This document shows positions 1 through 43,328 of a stretch of DNA of 64,000 bases, one piece after another. The notes under the pieces are model-generated. The model did no database searches, was not told where the DNA came from, and saw nothing but the letters and a program-made list of their open reading frames with translations. Position 1 is the first letter of the stretch. Each line of letters opens with the position of its first letter. The stretch lies in NCBI RefSeq assembly GCF_988243305.1, contig NZ_OZ547136.1. One strand, written 5' to 3'. The position numbers and the translations under genes were made by a program.

Positions 1-150
1 GCATCACTGCTGCCGTGCGATAACGTCTTTGCCATCGAAAGCCGCTGGTATCGCGATAACCCTCTGGTGATCCGCGGACCAGGCGCAGGGCGCGATGTCA
101 CCGCCGGGGCGATTCAGTCGGATATCAACCGGCTGGCGCAGTTGTTGTAA
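1..150 (+). CDS. metL: Bifunctional aspartokinase II / homoserine dehydrogenase II, 3' end only (partial; start lies upstream of window)
   Basis: Frame 1 reads through to TAA at 148-150, giving a C-terminus ...RDNPLVIRGPGAGRDVTAGAIQSDINRLAQLL that I recognise as MetL; position immediately upstream of metF fits E. coli synteny. Confidence 0.8.
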   Translation, partial: ASLLPCDNVFAIESRWYRDNPLVIRGPGAGRDVTAGAIQSDINRLAQLL

Positions 151-1244
151 TCCTGAGCCAGAGAAAGCAGTATTTGCATAACGCGCCCTGCGGAAAGCGG
201 GGTGCTGTGAGTAAATACTGCTTGTTTATGTAGCCAGTCGATAAAATGTCTGCTGGTTGCTAAAGAGAGCATTTCAGCTTTGCTGATATTTCCGCCCGTT
301 AATGCACATACCATTTTACGATTTTTTCCCTGAACCCAGAGTTGCCACTGATTTTTCCACCAGCCGTGATAAGTTGTTCCCTGAAAACGCCAGGGCATAT
401 TATCGGTATCGTCAGCTATTTCCTCTTCAATAAACCAAATCTCACCTTGCTGTTGGCGAAACAGATCAGCCCATGCCGTAATAATGGCACCTCTTAAAAA
501 ACACTCGTGTGAAATTACATGTGTTTTTACTGTAGGGAAGAGAATATTCAGTACTCTGAAATGCCCGTGTGCAGTGATAACCGGACGCAGAATAACACCT
601 TTAGCATTGCGTTTGAGCGCTGCGCTGCCATACTGAATTTCATCAAACTGACTGCGGCGTAGAAATTGTGCTTCGCGCATATCAACGCGTTGTACAATAT
701 TACTCTCGTGTAACTCTGGTTCTGCATTCCCTCTGTATCGATAATGCAGACTTTCTCCAGCCTGATGCTGCGTGTAATTAGTAGAAAGATGAAGAATATT
801 ACCGCGAAGAGCATCAAAACTGATTAAAACATACAGTTTCTGCCCGCTGCTGACTCCCTGAAATGGCACGAGAAAAGCAACCGTTTCGATTATTTCAGGA
901 GGCGTTATTTCTTTCTGATATTGTTTGGGTGTCCATACTTTTTTGCAGTTACGGCATTGAATGCGTTGCGAACCCTGTGGATTGTGACCATAACAAATCG
1001 TATCTGTACCATAACATACCGGGCAAAAATGGCCTTTCTCTGTTGCAAAAGTAGATAAGTGAACTGACAACCAGTCACGAAATTGTTGCTCGTCAAACAA
1101 CGGCGGGTAACTGCCACATGCCCGACAGTGCAATGCCGGATAACCCAGTCGATAGTCTGGCCAGCTGTAATCTGTCGAAGTTGGCTGCCCTAAATTACGG
1201 CAACCAAACGACTTGCAGGCATTAATCGTAAACAGAGTCGACAT
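114..1244 (-). CDS. Hypothetical cysteine-rich protein with two predicted N-terminal zinc ribbons (Cx4C...CxxC and CxxC...CxxC), possibly transposase-derived; function unknown
   Basis: 376-aa ORF with ATG start (1242-1244) and a GGTGA Shine-Dalgarno-like motif 5-6 nt upstream. Cys pairs at residues 10/15, 40/43, 74/77 and 97/100; the segment CPVCYG...GSQRIQCRNCKKVW resembles IS1595/ISXO2-type transposase zinc ribbons. No other motif recognised in the C-terminal ~260 aa. Not part of the K-12 gene order as I recall it. Confidence 0.7.
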   Translation of the reverse strand: MSTLFTINACKSFGCRNLGQPTSTDYSWPDYRLGYPALHCRACGSYPPLFDEQQFRDWLSVHLSTFATEKGHFCPVCYGTDTICYGHNPQGSQRIQCRNCKKVWTPKQYQKEITPPEIIETVAFLVPFQGVSSGQKLYVLISFDALRGNILHLSTNYTQHQAGESLHYRYRGNAEPELHESNIVQRVDMREAQFLRRSQFDEIQYGSAALKRNAKGVILRPVITAHGHFRVLNILFPTVKTHVISHECFLRGAIITAWADLFRQQQGEIWFIEEEIADDTDNMPWRFQGTTYHGWWKNQWQLWVQGKNRKMVCALTGGNISKAEMLSLATSRHFIDWLHKQAVFTHSTPLSAGRVMQILLSLAQDYNNCASRLISD

Positions 1245-1301
1245 ATATCACCAACGATTTCACAAGGTCGTTGATTTTGTCCGGCAACGCTCCCTTGTGG
1301 A

Positions 1302-1317
1302 TGTGATTGCTCTCACA
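1302..1317. promoter_or_regulatory. Candidate CRP (cAMP receptor protein) binding site, perfect consensus palindrome TGTGA-N6-TCACA
   Basis: tgtgattgctctcaca read directly in the divergent intergenic region; centre ~67 bp upstream of the 1377 ATG. Confidence 0.45.
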
Positions 1318-1376
1318 TAAATAACTCTTTCAGAACGTAATGTAGCAATCCTTTATCTCACTGGAAGGGATTGTTT

Positions 1377-2930
1377 ATGAAAATTAAAATGCTTGCTGCG
1401 GGTATCGCATTAACACTGTCGTTTTGGGCTTGCGCCAAAGATGTCACCATCATTTATACCAACGACCTCCATGCACATGTAGAGCCTTATAAAGTGCCGT
1501 GGATTGCTGACGGTAAACGAGATATTGGCGGCTGGGCAAATATCACTACGCTTGTTAAACAAGAAAAAGCTAAAAACAAAGCGACCTGGTTTTTTGATGC
1601 GGGTGACTATTTTACCGGGCCGTATATCAGCAGCCTGACTAAAGGCAAGGCGATTATCGATATTATGAATACCATGCCGTTCGATGCGGTCACTATAGGT
1701 AATCATGAATTTGATCACGGCTGGGACAACACATTATTACAGTTGAGTCAGGCAAAATTCCCGATTGTGCAGGGCAATGTTTTTTATCAGAACAGCAGTA
1801 AATCATTCTGGGATAAGCCCTATACCATCATTGAAAAAGACGGCGTGAAAATTGGCGTGATTGGTTTGCACGGTGTATTTGCCTTTAATGATACGGTATC
1901 TGCGGCAACGCGAGTGGGTATTGAGGCGCGTGATGAAATTAAATGGCTACAACGTTATATCGATGAACTCAAAGGCAAGGTTGATTTGACCGTTGCGCTG
2001 ATTCACGAAGGTGTTCCGGCCCGCCAGTCCAGTATGGGGGGCACAGATGTGCGCCGCGCACTGGATAAAGATATTCAGACGGCAAGTCAGGTGAAAGGGC
2101 TGGATATTTTGATCACCGGGCATGCACATGTGGGTACGCCGGAACCGATTAAAGTCGGCAATACGCTCATCCTCTCCACTGACAGCGGCGGGATTGATGT
2201 GGGCAAACTGGTTCTCGACTACAAAGAGAAGCCGCATGATTTTACGGTGAAAAACTTCGAGCTTAAAACCATTTACGCCGACGAGTGGAAGCCCGATCCG
2301 CAAACGAAACAGGTGATCGACGGCTGGAATAAAAAGCTTGATGAAGTGGTGCAACAAACGGTCGCGAAATCGCCGGTTGAATTAAAACGTGCCTATGGTG
2401 AATCGGCTTCCCTCGGGAACCTGGCGGCGGACGCTTTACTGGTAGCGGCGGGTAAAAACACCCAATTGGCGTTAACCAACTCTGGCGGTATTCGCAATGA
2501 GATCCCCGCAGGGGCGATTACGATGGGCGGCGTCATCAGTACCTTCCCGTTCCCCAATGAACTGGTGACGATGGAGCTCACAGGTAAACAATTACGCAGT
2601 TTGATGGAACACGGCGCAAGTTTAAGTAATGGCGTTTTACAGGTATCGAAAGGCCTGGAAATGAAGTACGACAGCAGCAAACCGGTTGGTCAGCGGGTAA
2701 TCACACTGACTCTGAATGGCAAACCCATTGAAGATGCGACGATTTACCACATTGCTACTCAGAGTTTCCTTGCTGATGGTGGAGATGGTTTTACCGCCTT
2801 TACCGAAGGGAAAGCGCGTAACACAACGGGCGGTTATTACGTTTATCACGCCGTGGTTGATTACTTCAAAGCGGGCAATACCATTACGGATGAACAGATC
2901 AACGGTATGCGCGTGAAAGATATCAAGTAA
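1377..2930 (+). CDS. Secreted (periplasmic) bifunctional metallophosphoesterase / 5'-nucleotidase-family protein (UshA/CpdB-like)
   Basis: ORF track 1371..2930 begins at TTG; ATG at 1377 with GGAAGGGA 8 nt upstream is the more likely start (~517 aa). N-terminal signal peptide [20 protein letters not shown]. Calcineurin-like phosphoesterase motifs [23 protein letters not shown]; C-terminal region with GNLAADALL and NSGGIR typical of the 5'-nucleotidase C-terminal domain. Confidence 0.85.
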
Positions 2931-2986
2931 AAGTACGTATTGAGTTGATTCATCTGTTTGTTACCAGTTGATTTTGCAGATCCAGT

Positions 2987-3016
2987 ATTCGGCCTACGCG
3001 AGGGCGCAGGCCGAAT
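2987..3016. repeat. GC-rich stem-loop (9-bp stem attcggcct / aggccgaat, 12-nt loop); REP-like or terminator-like
   Basis: Inverted repeat read directly; no clear T-run on either side. Confidence 0.35.
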
Positions 3017-3238
3017 CAGATGCCTTAGCATCACCATCCGGTGGCAGGACGTTGTTTTTCGAATAAGCCCAGGTGTCGCTGTGTTGTCAGAATATCAGTC
3101 AAAACGTGCGAGGTGGATTGCGCTATAGAGAAATCTTTTATCGCCTCTAATTAAGATGAGTTTTTTTCAACTTCCCTGATTTTTCCTCACCATCATTGGT
3201 CATTTTTCGGTTGACGCCCCTCGGCTTTTCCTTCATCT

Positions 3239-3270
3239 TTACATCTGGACGTCTAAATGGATAGATGTTC
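3239..3270 (+). promoter_or_regulatory. MetJ operator (tandem 8-bp met boxes) upstream of metF
   Basis: ggacgtct aaatggat agatgttc matches AGACGTCT-type met boxes; position 40-70 bp upstream of the metF start. Confidence 0.6.
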
Positions 3271-3308
3271 ACAACACAACATATAACTACAAGCGATTGA
3301 TGAGGTAA

Positions 3309-4202
<894 letters not shown>

Positions 4203-4476
4203 ATAGTGTGGCTTTTGTGAAAATCACACAGTGATCACAAATTTTAAACAGAGCACAAAATGCTGCCTCGAAATGAGGGCGGGAAAATAAGGGTGTCAGC
4301 CTTGTTTTCTCCCTCATTACTTGAAGGATATAAAGCTAAAACCCTTTTTTATAAAGCATTTGTCCGAATTCGGACATAATCAAAAAAGCTTAATTACGAT
4401 CAATTTGATCTACATCTCTTTAACCAACAATATGTAAGATCTCAACTATCGCATCCGTGGATTAATTCAATTATAA

Positions 4477-6711
<2,235 letters not shown>

Positions 6712-36782: not shown

Positions 36783-36827
36783 TTTGGTTGAATGTTGTGC
36801 GGTCAGAAAATTATTTTAAATTTCCTC

Positions 36828-36855
36828 TTGTCAGGCCGGAATAACTCCCTATAAT
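36828..36855 (+). promoter_or_regulatory. rRNA operon promoter P1 (-35 TTGTCA, 16-bp spacer, -10 TATAAT) with AT-rich UP element upstream
   Basis: ttgtcaggccggaataactccctataat read directly. Confidence 0.8.
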
Positions 36856-36944
36856 GCGCCACCACTGACACGGAACAACGGCAAACACGCCGCCGGGTGA
36901 GCGGGGTTCTCCTGAGAATCTCAACAGAGAAAAGCAAAAAAATG

Positions 36945-36973
36945 CTTGACTCTGTAGCGGGAAAGCGTATTAT
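36945..36973 (+). promoter_or_regulatory. rRNA operon promoter P2 (-35 TTGACT, 17-bp spacer, -10 TATTAT)
   Basis: ttgactctgtagcgggaaagcgtattat read directly. Confidence 0.75.
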
Positions 36974-37153
36974 GCACACCCCGCGCCGCTGAGAAAAAGC
37001 GAAGCGGCACTGCTCTTTAACAATTTATCAGACAATCTGTGTGGGCACTCGAAGATACGGATTCTTAACGTCGCAAGACGAAAATGAATACCAAGTCTCA
37101 AGAGTGAACACGTAATTCATTACGAAGTTTAATTCTTTGAGCATCAAACTTTT

Positions 37154-38695
<1,542 letters not shown>

Positions 38696-38780
38696 CCTTA
38701 AAGAAGCGTTCTTTGAAGTGCTCACACAGATTGTCTGATAGAAAGTGAAAAGCAAGGCGTCTTGCGAAGCAGACTGACAC

Positions 38781-38856
38781 GTCCCCTTCGTCTAGAGGCC
38801 CAGGACACCGCCCTTTCACGGCGGTAACAGGGGTTCGAATCCCCTAGGGGACGCCA
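38781..38856 (+). tRNA. gltT: tRNA-Glu (UUC) in the 16S-23S spacer
   Basis: GTCCCCTTCGTCTAGAGGCCCAGGACACCGCCCTTTCACGGCGGTAACAGGGGTTCGAATCCCCTAGGGGACGCCA; 76 nt. Confidence 0.95.
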
Positions 38857-39049
38857 CTTGCTGGTTTGTGAGTGAAAGTCACCTGCCTTGATATCTCAAA
38901 ACTCATCTTCGGGTGATGTTTGAGATATTTGCTCTTTAAAAATCTGGATCAAGCTGAAAATTGAAACACTGAACAACGAAAGTTGTTCGTGAGTCTCTCA
39001 AATTTTCGCAACACGATGATGAGTCGAAAGAAACATCTTCGGGTTGTGA

Positions 39050-41953
<2,904 letters not shown>

Positions 41954-42045
41954 ACAACGCCGAAGCTGTTTTGGCGGATGAGAGAAGATTTTCAGCCTGA
42001 TACAGATTAAATCAGAACGCAGAAGCGGTCTGATGAAACAGAATT

Positions 42046-42165
42046 TGCCTGGCGGCCTTAGCGCGGTGGTCCCACCTGACCCCATGCCGAACTCAGAAGT
42101 GAAACGCCGTAGCGCCGATGGTAGTGTGGGGTCTCCCCATGCGAGAGTAGGGAACTGCCAGGCAT
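42046..42165 (+). rRNA. rrfB: 5S ribosomal RNA
   Basis: TGCCTGGCGGCC...GGGAACTGCCAGGCAT; 120 nt. Confidence 0.97.
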
Positions 42166-42177
42166 CAAATTAAGCAG

Positions 42178-42207
42178 AAGGCCCAGTCGGAAGACTGGGC
42201 CTTTTTG
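42178..42207 (+). terminator. rRNA operon Rho-independent terminator
   Basis: aaggcccagtc-ggaa-gactgggcctt hairpin followed by ttttt, 13 nt after the 5S end. Confidence 0.75.
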
Positions 42208-42299
42208 CGTTTCTACAAACTTTCCCTGTCGTCATAACTACAAGCCATCCCCCCACAGATACGGTAAACTAGCCTCGTTTTTGCATCAGGAAAGCAGCT

Positions 42300-43328
42300 A
42301 TGAACCACTCCTTAAAACCCTGGAACACATTTGGCATTGATCATAATGCTCAGCACATTGTATGTGCCGAAGACGAACAACAACTACTCAATGCCTGGCA
42401 GCATGCAACCGCAAAAGGACAATCCGTTCTTATTCTGGGTGAAGGAAGTAATATACTTTTTCTGGAAGACTATCGCGGTACGGTGATCATCAACCGGATC
42501 AAAGGTATCGAAATTCATGATGAACCTGATGCGTGGTATTTACATGTAGGAGCCGGAGAAAACTGGCATCGCCTGGTAAAATACACTTTGCAGGAAGGTA
42601 TGCCTGGTCTGGAAAATCTGGCATTAATTCCTGGTTGTGTCGGCTCATCACCTATCCAGAATATTGGTGCTTATGGCGTAGAATTACAGCGAGTTTGCGC
42701 TTATGTTGATTGTGTTGAACTGGCGACAGGCAAGCAAGTGCGCTTAACTGCCAAAGAGTGCCGTTTTGGCTATCGCGACAGTATTTTTAAACATGAATAC
42801 CAGGATCGCTTCGCCATTGTAGCCGTAGGTCTGCGTCTGCCAAAAGAGTGGCAACCTGTACTAACGTATGGTGACTTAACTCGTCTGGATCCTACAACAA
42901 TAACGCCACAGCAAGTATTTGATGCGGTGTGTCATATGCGCACCACCAAACTTCCTGACCCAAAAGTGAATGGCAATGCCGGTAGTTTCTTCAAAAACCC
43001 TGTTGTATCTGCCGAAACGGCTAAAGCATTACTGGCACAATTTCCAACAGCACCAAATTATCCCCAGGCGGATGGTTCAGTAAAACTGGCAGCAGGTTGG
43101 CTTATCGATCAGTGCCAGCTAAAAGGGATGCAAATGGGTGGGGCTGCGGTGCACCGTCAACAGGCGTTAGTTCTCATTAATGAAGACAATGCAAAAAGCG
43201 AAGATGTGGTGCAACTGGCACACCATGTAAGACAAAAAGTGGGTGAAAAATTTAATGTCTGGCTTGAGCCTGAAGTCCGCTTTATTGGTGCATCAGGTGA
43301 AGTGAGCGCAGTGGAGACGATTTCATGA
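42300..43328 (+). CDS. murB: UDP-N-acetylenolpyruvoylglucosamine reductase
   Basis: 342-aa [33 protein letters not shown]... Confidence 0.95.

Follow-up and report, generated by a model that had tools for sequence, protein, structure and literature searches.

The closest described relative of the gene considered here is the Escherichia coli protein c4898, known from two structural genomics crystal structures released in 2009: PDB 3IVD, titled 'Putative 5'-Nucleotidase (c4898) from Escherichia coli in complex with Uridine', and 3IVE, its cytidine equivalent. At the level of the locus, the closest described system is the metL..metF region 'GR31' of extraintestinal pathogenic E. coli (ExPEC) strains, which holds a Tsx homologue and three UshA-like open reading frames (ORFs), and for which nucleoside processing and transport were proposed on bioinformatic grounds only (PLoS One 2026, PMC12928451). 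This study examined a 64,000-nucleotide stretch of E. coli DNA (contig NZ_OZ547136.1 of RefSeq assembly GCF_988243305.1; hereafter the window), where a 517-amino-acid (aa) enzyme of the 5'-nucleotidase family, NT517, is encoded between metL and metF, divergently from a 376-aa protein, hyp376. NT517 is the same protein as c4898, about ten substitutions apart (98% identity over residues 19-517 in a PDB sequence search), and is the counterpart of ORF 431 (1554 bp) of GR31, which occupies the same chromosomal region (PMC12928451). GR31 is a long form of this locus, with the Tsx homologue and two further UshA-like genes, while the window contains the short form, with hyp376 and NT517 only. The enzyme is already annotated, crystallized and noted in a comparative-genomics paper, and its description here adds little; the partner gene is the more curious of the two. 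By sequence comparison, NT517 belongs to a separate, conserved clade of presumably periplasmic 5'-nucleotidases within the UshA/CD73 superfamily, and its structure is already known.

NT517 and its described relatives

The gene, its ribosome-binding site and the parts of its product are as follows (positions are those of the window).

1377 to 2930 (stop codon included), plus strand: coding sequence of NT517, a 517-aa 5'-nucleotidase-family enzyme, from the ORF list and the RefSeq orthologue
1363 to 1369, plus strand: Shine-Dalgarno sequence GGAAGGG, 7 nt before the NT517 ATG at 1377
1377 to 1436, plus strand: predicted signal peptide (residues 1-20), cut by signal peptidase I (SPase I) after A20 (ACA/KD), from charge, hydrophobicity and the -3/-1 rule
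1446 to 2132, plus strand: N-terminal calcineurin-like metallophosphoesterase domain (residues 24-252), Pfam PF00149 (Metallophos), E 4e-12
2379 to 2807, plus strand: C-terminal 5'-nucleotidase substrate-binding domain (residues 335-477), Pfam PF02872 (5_nucleotid_C), E 5e-39

The ORF runs uninterrupted to position 2930. Its mechanical start is a TTG at 1371; the RefSeq orthologue, named 'bifunctional metallophosphatase/5'-nucleotidase', has the same coordinates as the coding sequence above and starts at the ATG at 1377. NT517 has the two-domain architecture, dimetal site, catalytic dyad, nucleotide clamp and fold of the 5'-nucleotidase/UshA-CD73 superfamily. Its translation contains the motifs D30-x-H32, G76-D77-xxx-G81, G108-N109-H110-E111 and G248-H249-x-H251, in addition to GNLAADALL and NSGGIR. 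When mapped onto UshA of E. coli K-12, the metal ligands are D30, H32, D77, N109, H210, H249 and H251 (UshA D41/H43/D84/N116/H217/H252/Q254), and the His-Asp dyad H110-D113 aligns to UshA H117/D120. All nine metal and catalytic positions of UshA are matched in this alignment, with H251 in place of UshA Gln254 producing the canonical GHxH. The nucleotide clamp R373/F392/N394/F464/D470 corresponds to UshA R410/F429/N431/F498/D504, and R338 is nearly invariant among the 18 sequences of a family alignment. Since every metal ligand, the dyad and the clamp are kept, NT517 is not a pseudoenzyme. The AlphaFold2 model of NT517 (predicted local distance difference test score of 90) superposes on 3IVD/3IVE in Foldseek with template modelling (TM) scores of 0.93-0.97, and on closed-state CD73/UshA structures with a score of approximately 0.8, compared to approximately 0.57 for the open states. 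The better superposition of the model on the closed state agrees with the hinge mechanism by which this family works.

The N-terminus has the features of Sec export and SPase I cleavage, judged by heuristics and by comparison with orthologues: a charged n-region (MKIK, +2), a hydrophobic core of 14 residues (5-18), small residues at -3 and -1 (A-C-A followed by K-D), and no lipobox. The orthologues retain A/S/V-x-A and, directly after it, (K/Q)D, but differ at position 19, which is C, S, F or A. A lipoprotein reading of 'FWAC' was rejected because Cys19 is variable among orthologues and the A-x-A/(K/Q)-D pattern is kept. When aligned to NT517, the 98%-identical protein in the PDB begins at residue 19-20. 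NT517 is predicted to be exported and is presumably a periplasmic-type protein.

Beyond c4898, the next closest solved relative is the 5'-nucleotidase precursor of T. thermophilus HB8 (2Z1A; 27% identity, E 8e-46, TM 0.80), which has the same two-domain fold but is distant in sequence, comes from another phylum and is not an orthologue. The human ecto-5'-nucleotidase CD73 and the snake-venom 5'-nucleotidases are 23-26% identical to NT517 and resemble it in fold, in the dimetal site and His-Asp dyad, and in the Phe clamp. CD73 is glycosylphosphatidylinositol-anchored and dimeric, and the venom enzymes are secreted. The periplasmic 5'-nucleotidase/UDP-sugar hydrolase UshA of E. coli shares its architecture and catalytic residues with NT517 at 20-26% identity; however, K-12 UshA is 550 aa long (NT517 is 33 aa shorter), has Gln254 where NT517 has H251, and is encoded by a core gene, whereas the NT517 gene is variable in E. 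coli. Identity to NadN is 21% (Foldseek). E. coli CpdB, a 2',3'-cyclic phosphodiesterase/3'-nucleotidase, belongs to the same superfamily, with the likeness confined to the N-terminal domain and below the family cut-off. An NT517-type ORF has been reported as approximately 28% identical to B. subtilis YfkN (PMC12928451), a member of the same superfamily that differs in being a multi-domain fusion of >1,000 residues. The NT517 clade was not among the probes of a 2023 survey of ushA-like genes.

Compared to the NCBIfam equivalog cut-offs, NT517 scored 151.6 bits against UshA (NF007109; cut-off 600), 103 and 101 bits against CpdB (NF006938 and TIGR01390; cut-offs 486 and 883, with matches in the N-terminal domain only) and 133 bits against NadN (TIGR01530; cut-off 436). 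SoxB (TIGR04486) was rejected at 154 bits with a cut-off of 550, and SoxB in the PDB matches just a 45-residue stretch. Because all of these cut-offs were missed, NT517 is not UshA, CpdB, NadN or SoxB. The top NCBIfam match is the C-terminal half (positions 629-1097 of 1174) of the profile for the multifunctional PRK09419 family.

A preliminary description of this gene, made from the sequence without database searches, stood up well with regard to the protein itself. The ORF it proposed at 1377-2930 is real and intact, with a Shine-Dalgarno sequence before the ATG and the same start in RefSeq; its cleavage site after WACA agrees with the A20 cut favoured by the heuristic features and the orthologue pattern; each phosphoesterase motif it listed (DxH, GDxxxG, GNHE, GHxH) was found in the translation; and the calcineurin-like and 5'-nucleotidase C-terminal domains it named were both recovered by Pfam at the E values given above. 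The loss of metal ligands that it raised as a sign of a pseudoenzyme was not seen in the UshA alignment, where all ligands and the dyad are kept. Its statements that the protein is shorter than UshA and CpdB (517 aa, compared to 550 aa and a CpdB profile of 648 positions) and that it is a paralogue distinct from both (152 of 600 and 103 of 486 bits; 20-26% identity to UshA) were also borne out. The picture of an exported two-domain enzyme with a full catalytic set, distinct from its paralogues and accessory in E. coli, can therefore be retained, while the implied novelty and the label 'acquired' (see below) cannot: the 98% identical c4898 was crystallized in 2009, and UshA-like ORFs between metL and metF were described in 2026 (PMC12928451). 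On the point of orthology to an already characterized E. coli enzyme, the answer is yes structurally, given the c4898 crystals, and no biochemically as far as the literature shows.

Proposed function and regulation

The favoured reading, to which a probability of approximately 0.68 is assigned, is that NT517 scavenges nucleotides as a Sec-exported periplasmic 5'-nucleotidase under the control of CRP and cyclic AMP (cAMP). Most likely, it removes phosphate from nucleoside monophosphates in the periplasm or outside the cell, and does so under catabolite control. The integrity of the gene, the domains, residues and fold of its product, the nucleoside-bound structures, the synteny and the conservation of the CRP motif are shown; we infer the substrate range, the periplasmic location, the CRP dependence and the physiological role, and the mechanism outlined here is drawn by homology. 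The signal peptide would be removed between A20 and K21. In the mature protein, the N-terminal domain would hold two divalent metal ions, one coordinated by D30, H32, D77 and H251 and the other by D77, N109, H210 and H249, and a metal-activated water, aided by the H110-D113 dyad, would attack the 5'-phosphate. The C-terminal domain is expected to clamp the base between F392 and F464, to hold the ribose through N394 and D470 and the phosphate through R338 and R373, and to swing onto the metal site in a hinge motion between open and closed states, as known from UshA and CD73, with a nucleoside and phosphate as the products. The enzyme would be made when preferred carbon is scarce, and would convert extracellular nucleotides, which are not transportable, into importable nucleosides and phosphate.

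Several observations support this reading, among them the two Pfam domains, the match to all nine metal and catalytic positions of UshA, the clamp residues, the near identity to c4898, the PRK09419 match and the signal peptide features described above. Binding of pyrimidine nucleosides is shown, according to the titles of the 3IVD/3IVE crystals, and the closest solved relatives beyond c4898 are genuine 5'-nucleotidases. In addition, nucleoside-related genes are found next to NT517 or its relatives, namely a Tsx-like channel and two paralogues in the long island form and, in Providencia, a major facilitator superfamily (MFS) transporter gene and a PNP_UDP_1 gene. Evidence for the mode of control comes from the divergent spacer between hyp376 and NT517, in which two elements were recognized.

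1302 to 1317, no strand assigned: CRP-type palindrome TGTGATTGCTCTCACA, within the 132-bp divergent spacer (1245-1376), with its centre 67.5 nt before the ATG of NT517
1338 to 1343, plus strand: candidate weak -10 hexamer TAATGT, proposed from a reading of the sequence

The palindrome TGTGATTGCTCTCACA is the only perfect CRP-type palindrome (TGTGA-N6-TCACA) in the 64-kb window, where 0.04 would be expected. Its conservation was followed in a survey of a one-genome-per-species collection, in which the hyp376-type neighbour protein was used as the query and 37 loci were recovered, 35 of which were evaluable upstream (the remaining two are interrupted by a contig end or contain a fragment only). 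The CRP half-sites were perfect in 25 of the 35 loci, with one mismatch in nine and two mismatches in one, while the 6-nt spacer between them was variable and the centre of the site lay 64-68 nt before the start codon of NT517. Half-sites that are retained around a changing spacer, at a position that hardly moves, amount to a phylogenetic footprint of a bound protein. The spacing to the candidate -10 hexamer suggests a transcription start near 1351 and a CRP site at -41.5, which would be class II geometry. cAMP-CRP is proposed to act from this class II site at 1302-1317, and transcription is predicted to need it, which makes for a concrete regulatory prediction. No second CRP site of the CytR-type tandem kind was found elsewhere in the 1245-1376 spacer with up to 3 mismatches. 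The spacer also contains an inverted repeat, CAACGA-N10-TCGTTG (1252-1273), directly upstream of the hyp376 ribosome-binding site, which is shared by E. coli, Enterobacter and Citrobacter. Either an operator or a hairpin in the 5'-untranslated region would be possible; the terminator scan flagged the repeat on the plus strand.

It is also important to note the points that weigh against this reading. A scan of positions 1-3400 returned no consensus sigma-70 promoter, although this is expected of an activator-dependent promoter, and CRP binding is predicted from the motif. The nucleosides in 3IVD/3IVE attest binding, not turnover or preference, and the alignment near UshA R375/R379 is uncertain, with R338 of NT517 off by 1-2 columns. 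Because no NCBIfam equivalog cut-off was reached, NT517 cannot be assigned the specificity of UshA, NadN or CpdB; in addition, no enzymology or functional study was found in the literature for c4898, 3IVD/3IVE or the NT517 clade. It is possible that the substrate of the clade is one not yet tied to UshA-like enzymes.

There are several alternative explanations for the function of NT517. The one that survives best, though still unlikely, is that NT517 is mainly a pyrophosphatase/diesterase of the UshA/NadN type, acting on UDP-sugars, CDP-alcohols or NAD (converted via NMN to nicotinamide riboside), with the 5'-nucleotidase activity as a second step. Membership of the superfamily and the active site fit this idea, NT517 matches the profiles of NadN (E 1e-38) and UshA (E 3e-44), some RefSeq orthologues are named 'bifunctional UDP-sugar hydrolase/5'-nucleotidase', and the uridine and cytidine ligands would also be end products of UDP-sugars or CDP-alcohols. 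However, the scores lie far under the equivalog cut-offs (152 versus 600 bits for UshA and 133 versus 436 for NadN), and the match to the NadN-specific C-terminal Pfam domain is weak and not significant (E 0.18). Functions of the UshA type are, moreover, encoded elsewhere in E. coli strains that carry NT517, which also counts against this alternative. The biochemical question that arises is the need for the NT517 clade in a cell that has UshA, CpdB and AphA.

It is quite improbable that NT517 is instead a CpdB-like 3'-nucleotidase or a phosphodiesterase for 2',3'-cyclic nucleotides or cyclic di- or oligonucleotides, degrading periplasmic RNA breakdown products or signalling nucleotides. Some sources label the orthologues '2',3'-cyclic-nucleotide 2'-phosphodiesterase (5'-nucleotidase family)', the CpdB profiles match the N-terminal domain, and PMC10454023 reports hydrolysis of cyclic dinucleotides by CpdB-type enzymes. 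The CpdB match nevertheless covers the metallophosphatase domain only (residues 8-256; 103 bits versus 486), while the C-terminal domain retains the 5'-nucleotide clamp of UshA/CD73 and the nearest solved enzymes are 5'-nucleotidases.

A role as a host-directed adenosine or nucleoside synthase, which would dampen immunity for extraintestinal E. coli as do S. aureus AdsA or streptococcal Nt5e, is very unlikely. The chemistry would be identical, the three-paralogue island occurs in IHE3034 and other ExPEC strains and in BEN2908, UTI89 and RS218, and PMC10454023 describes a pro-virulent effect of UshA-like enzymes for several pathogens. In contrast to what such a role would suggest, NT517 is periplasmic-type and not surface-anchored, synteny of the gene pair extends to genera of environmental and commensal bacteria (e.g., Kosakonia, Phytobacter, Kluyvera), a CRP-controlled promoter fits catabolism, and no infection data were found in the literature. 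Finally, that NT517 is a decaying or inactive remnant of a lost island is hardly credible. The absence of the gene from two thirds of E. coli genomes and its truncation in some genomes and species would fit this idea, but here the ORF is full length with all catalytic residues intact, and its cross-genus identity of 87-91%, compared to 57-64% for its neighbour, points to purifying selection.

Distribution and origin of the locus

Of 5426 complete E. coli genomes, 1840 (about a third) carry the NT517 gene, and K-12 lacks it, in agreement with the earlier suggestion that it is accessory within the species. The window begins with the 3' end of metL (to base 150), followed by a variable segment, metF (3312-4202), katG and yijE. 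Two further features belong here.

152 to 3161, no strand assigned: metL-metF variable segment, in place of which K-12 has 197 unrelated bp (blastn of the window against K-12)
2987 to 3016, plus strand: stable hairpin AUUCGGCCU...AGGCCGAAU without a U-tract, from folding, 57 nt after the NT517 stop codon

The segment 152-3161 holds two divergent genes, the 376-aa ORF (114-1244, minus strand) and NT517 (plus strand), and its GC content is 46.3%, compared to 51.9% for the window. The preliminary description had taken the gene to be acquired, a view that the wider survey does not support. Twenty-four of the 37 loci are flanked by metL and metF; they come from Escherichia, Pseudocitrobacter, Citrobacter, Kosakonia, Phytobacter, Klebsiella, Superficieibacter, Kluyvera and Salmonella arizonae. 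In the loci of other genera the identity of NT517 is 87-91%, compared to 86-95% for MetL and 91-97% for MetF. The presence of the pair at metL-metF in many genera of Enterobacteriaceae, together with these identities, points to an old syntenic locus and not to a recently acquired one. On these comparisons, the simplest reading looks to be vertical inheritance followed by loss in K-12-type E. coli, despite the lower GC content. The origin assigned to the locus is corrected accordingly, from acquired to ancestral and lost in K-12-type strains.

The long island form was identified in 659 E. coli genomes (e.g., IHE3034), with the order metL, tsx-like, NT539, NT516, hyp374, NT517, metF, where the paralogues NT539 and NT516 are 68% and 56% identical to NT517. 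At the long-form E. coli locus L003 (4410-8557), and also at L020, L022, L042 and L043, the 516- and 539-aa nucleotidases and a Tsx-like outer-membrane nucleoside channel adjoin the pair; in gene order, E. coli B2-type strains differ here from Enterobacter/Citrobacter. The pair occurs twice in some genomes, once at metL-metF and once at another site, and truncated NT517 copies are seen in certain genomes and species. The NT517 proteins of the short and long forms are 98% identical (approximately 94% in DNA), compared to 77% for the neighbour protein. The DNA identity between the short form and L003 falls from approximately 94% to 62-80% left of window position 980 (307-980, the 3' two thirds of hyp376), and this drop indicates a mosaic locus with a recombination breakpoint near 980. 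If E. coli strains carry zero, one or three such nucleotidases (plus a Tsx-like channel), their growth on extracellular nucleotides or on DNA/RNA breakdown products in the gut or urine may differ.

The hairpin at 2987-3016 is a possible transcript end or an element like the repetitive extragenic palindromic (REP) sequences. It was not called as an intrinsic terminator, and the scan 3' of NT517 found no canonical terminator, with matches at chance level only; an Rfam scan of positions 1-4600 at E<=1 returned no match. Outside this locus, the window is ordinary E. coli sequence, with 99.5% identity to complete genomes in the ppc-argE region. Approximately 5.5 kb of the window (36800-42300) is without any ORF of at least 250 aa.

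The divergent partner gene hyp376

The neighbour of NT517 is constant enough that the gene pair, not the nucleotidase, may be the interesting unit.

114 to 1244, minus strand: hyp376, a 376-aa 'cytoplasmic protein' that combines an RNase H-like, DDE-transposase-like domain with two Cys4 zinc ribbons

NT517 and hyp376 orthologues were divergently adjacent in all 35 evaluable loci, an association of a transposase-like protein with NT517 to which attention is drawn here. The divergent gap was 131-157 bp in 34 of these loci and 79 bp in Salmonella arizonae, where the hyp match is partial only. The pair was also found in Cronobacter, with a neighbour 40% identical to hyp376, and in Vibrio, where the neighbour is 32% identical, has a true ORF of 426 aa and contains both zinc ribbons. 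In Providencia (locus L009, 9648-11847), a hyp376 homologue and the nucleotidase are co-directional and are followed by the MFS transporter gene and the PNP_UDP_1-family (nucleoside phosphorylase-type) gene, an arrangement that suggests a nucleotide-to-base salvage cluster.

The Cys4 ribbons of hyp376 are formed by C10/C15/C40/C43 and C74/C77/C97/C100, and all eight cysteines are invariant, as are D144, D201 and E247. No significant Pfam match was obtained for hyp376, and the Pfam, NCBIfam and PHROG matches to the InsA-type ribbon were weak. The second ribbon (residues 72-106) is homologous to the zinc ribbon of InsA of K-12 IS1 (hhalign, 94% probability, E 1.4e-7), while homology of the C-terminal domain to IS1 InsB was undetectable by profile comparison. 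It was considered whether the pair is a mobile element, an insertion sequence with a passenger gene. This was rejected because no inverted or direct repeats or target duplication were found at the ends of the pair, the pair segment has few matching places per E. coli genome (median 1, maximum 3, flanks counted), and cross-genus DNA homology ends at the two ORFs.

On these findings, hyp376 is taken to be a transposase-derived and probably DNA-binding partner. More tentatively, and with doubt still outweighing confidence, it may be a domesticated IS1-like protein (given the InsA ribbon, the RNase H/DDE fold and the invariant D144/D201/E247) that was co-inherited with NT517 since before the Enterobacteriaceae-Vibrio split and acts as its dedicated DNA-binding regulator or partner alongside CRP. 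If so, hyp376 would represent a new family of transposase-derived transcription factors linked to periplasmic nucleotide catabolism.

Two minor observations concern the surroundings of the pair. The last 37 nt of hyp376 (114-150) overlap the 3' end of metL convergently, as is also the case at loci L013-L017 (Escherichia, Pseudocitrobacter) and not in Citrobacter. Additionally, a periplasmic-type arylsulfotransferase gene (PF05935) adjoins the pair in Enterobacter and Cronobacter (L005, 5043-6569, and L006, 9615-11141), on opposite sides.

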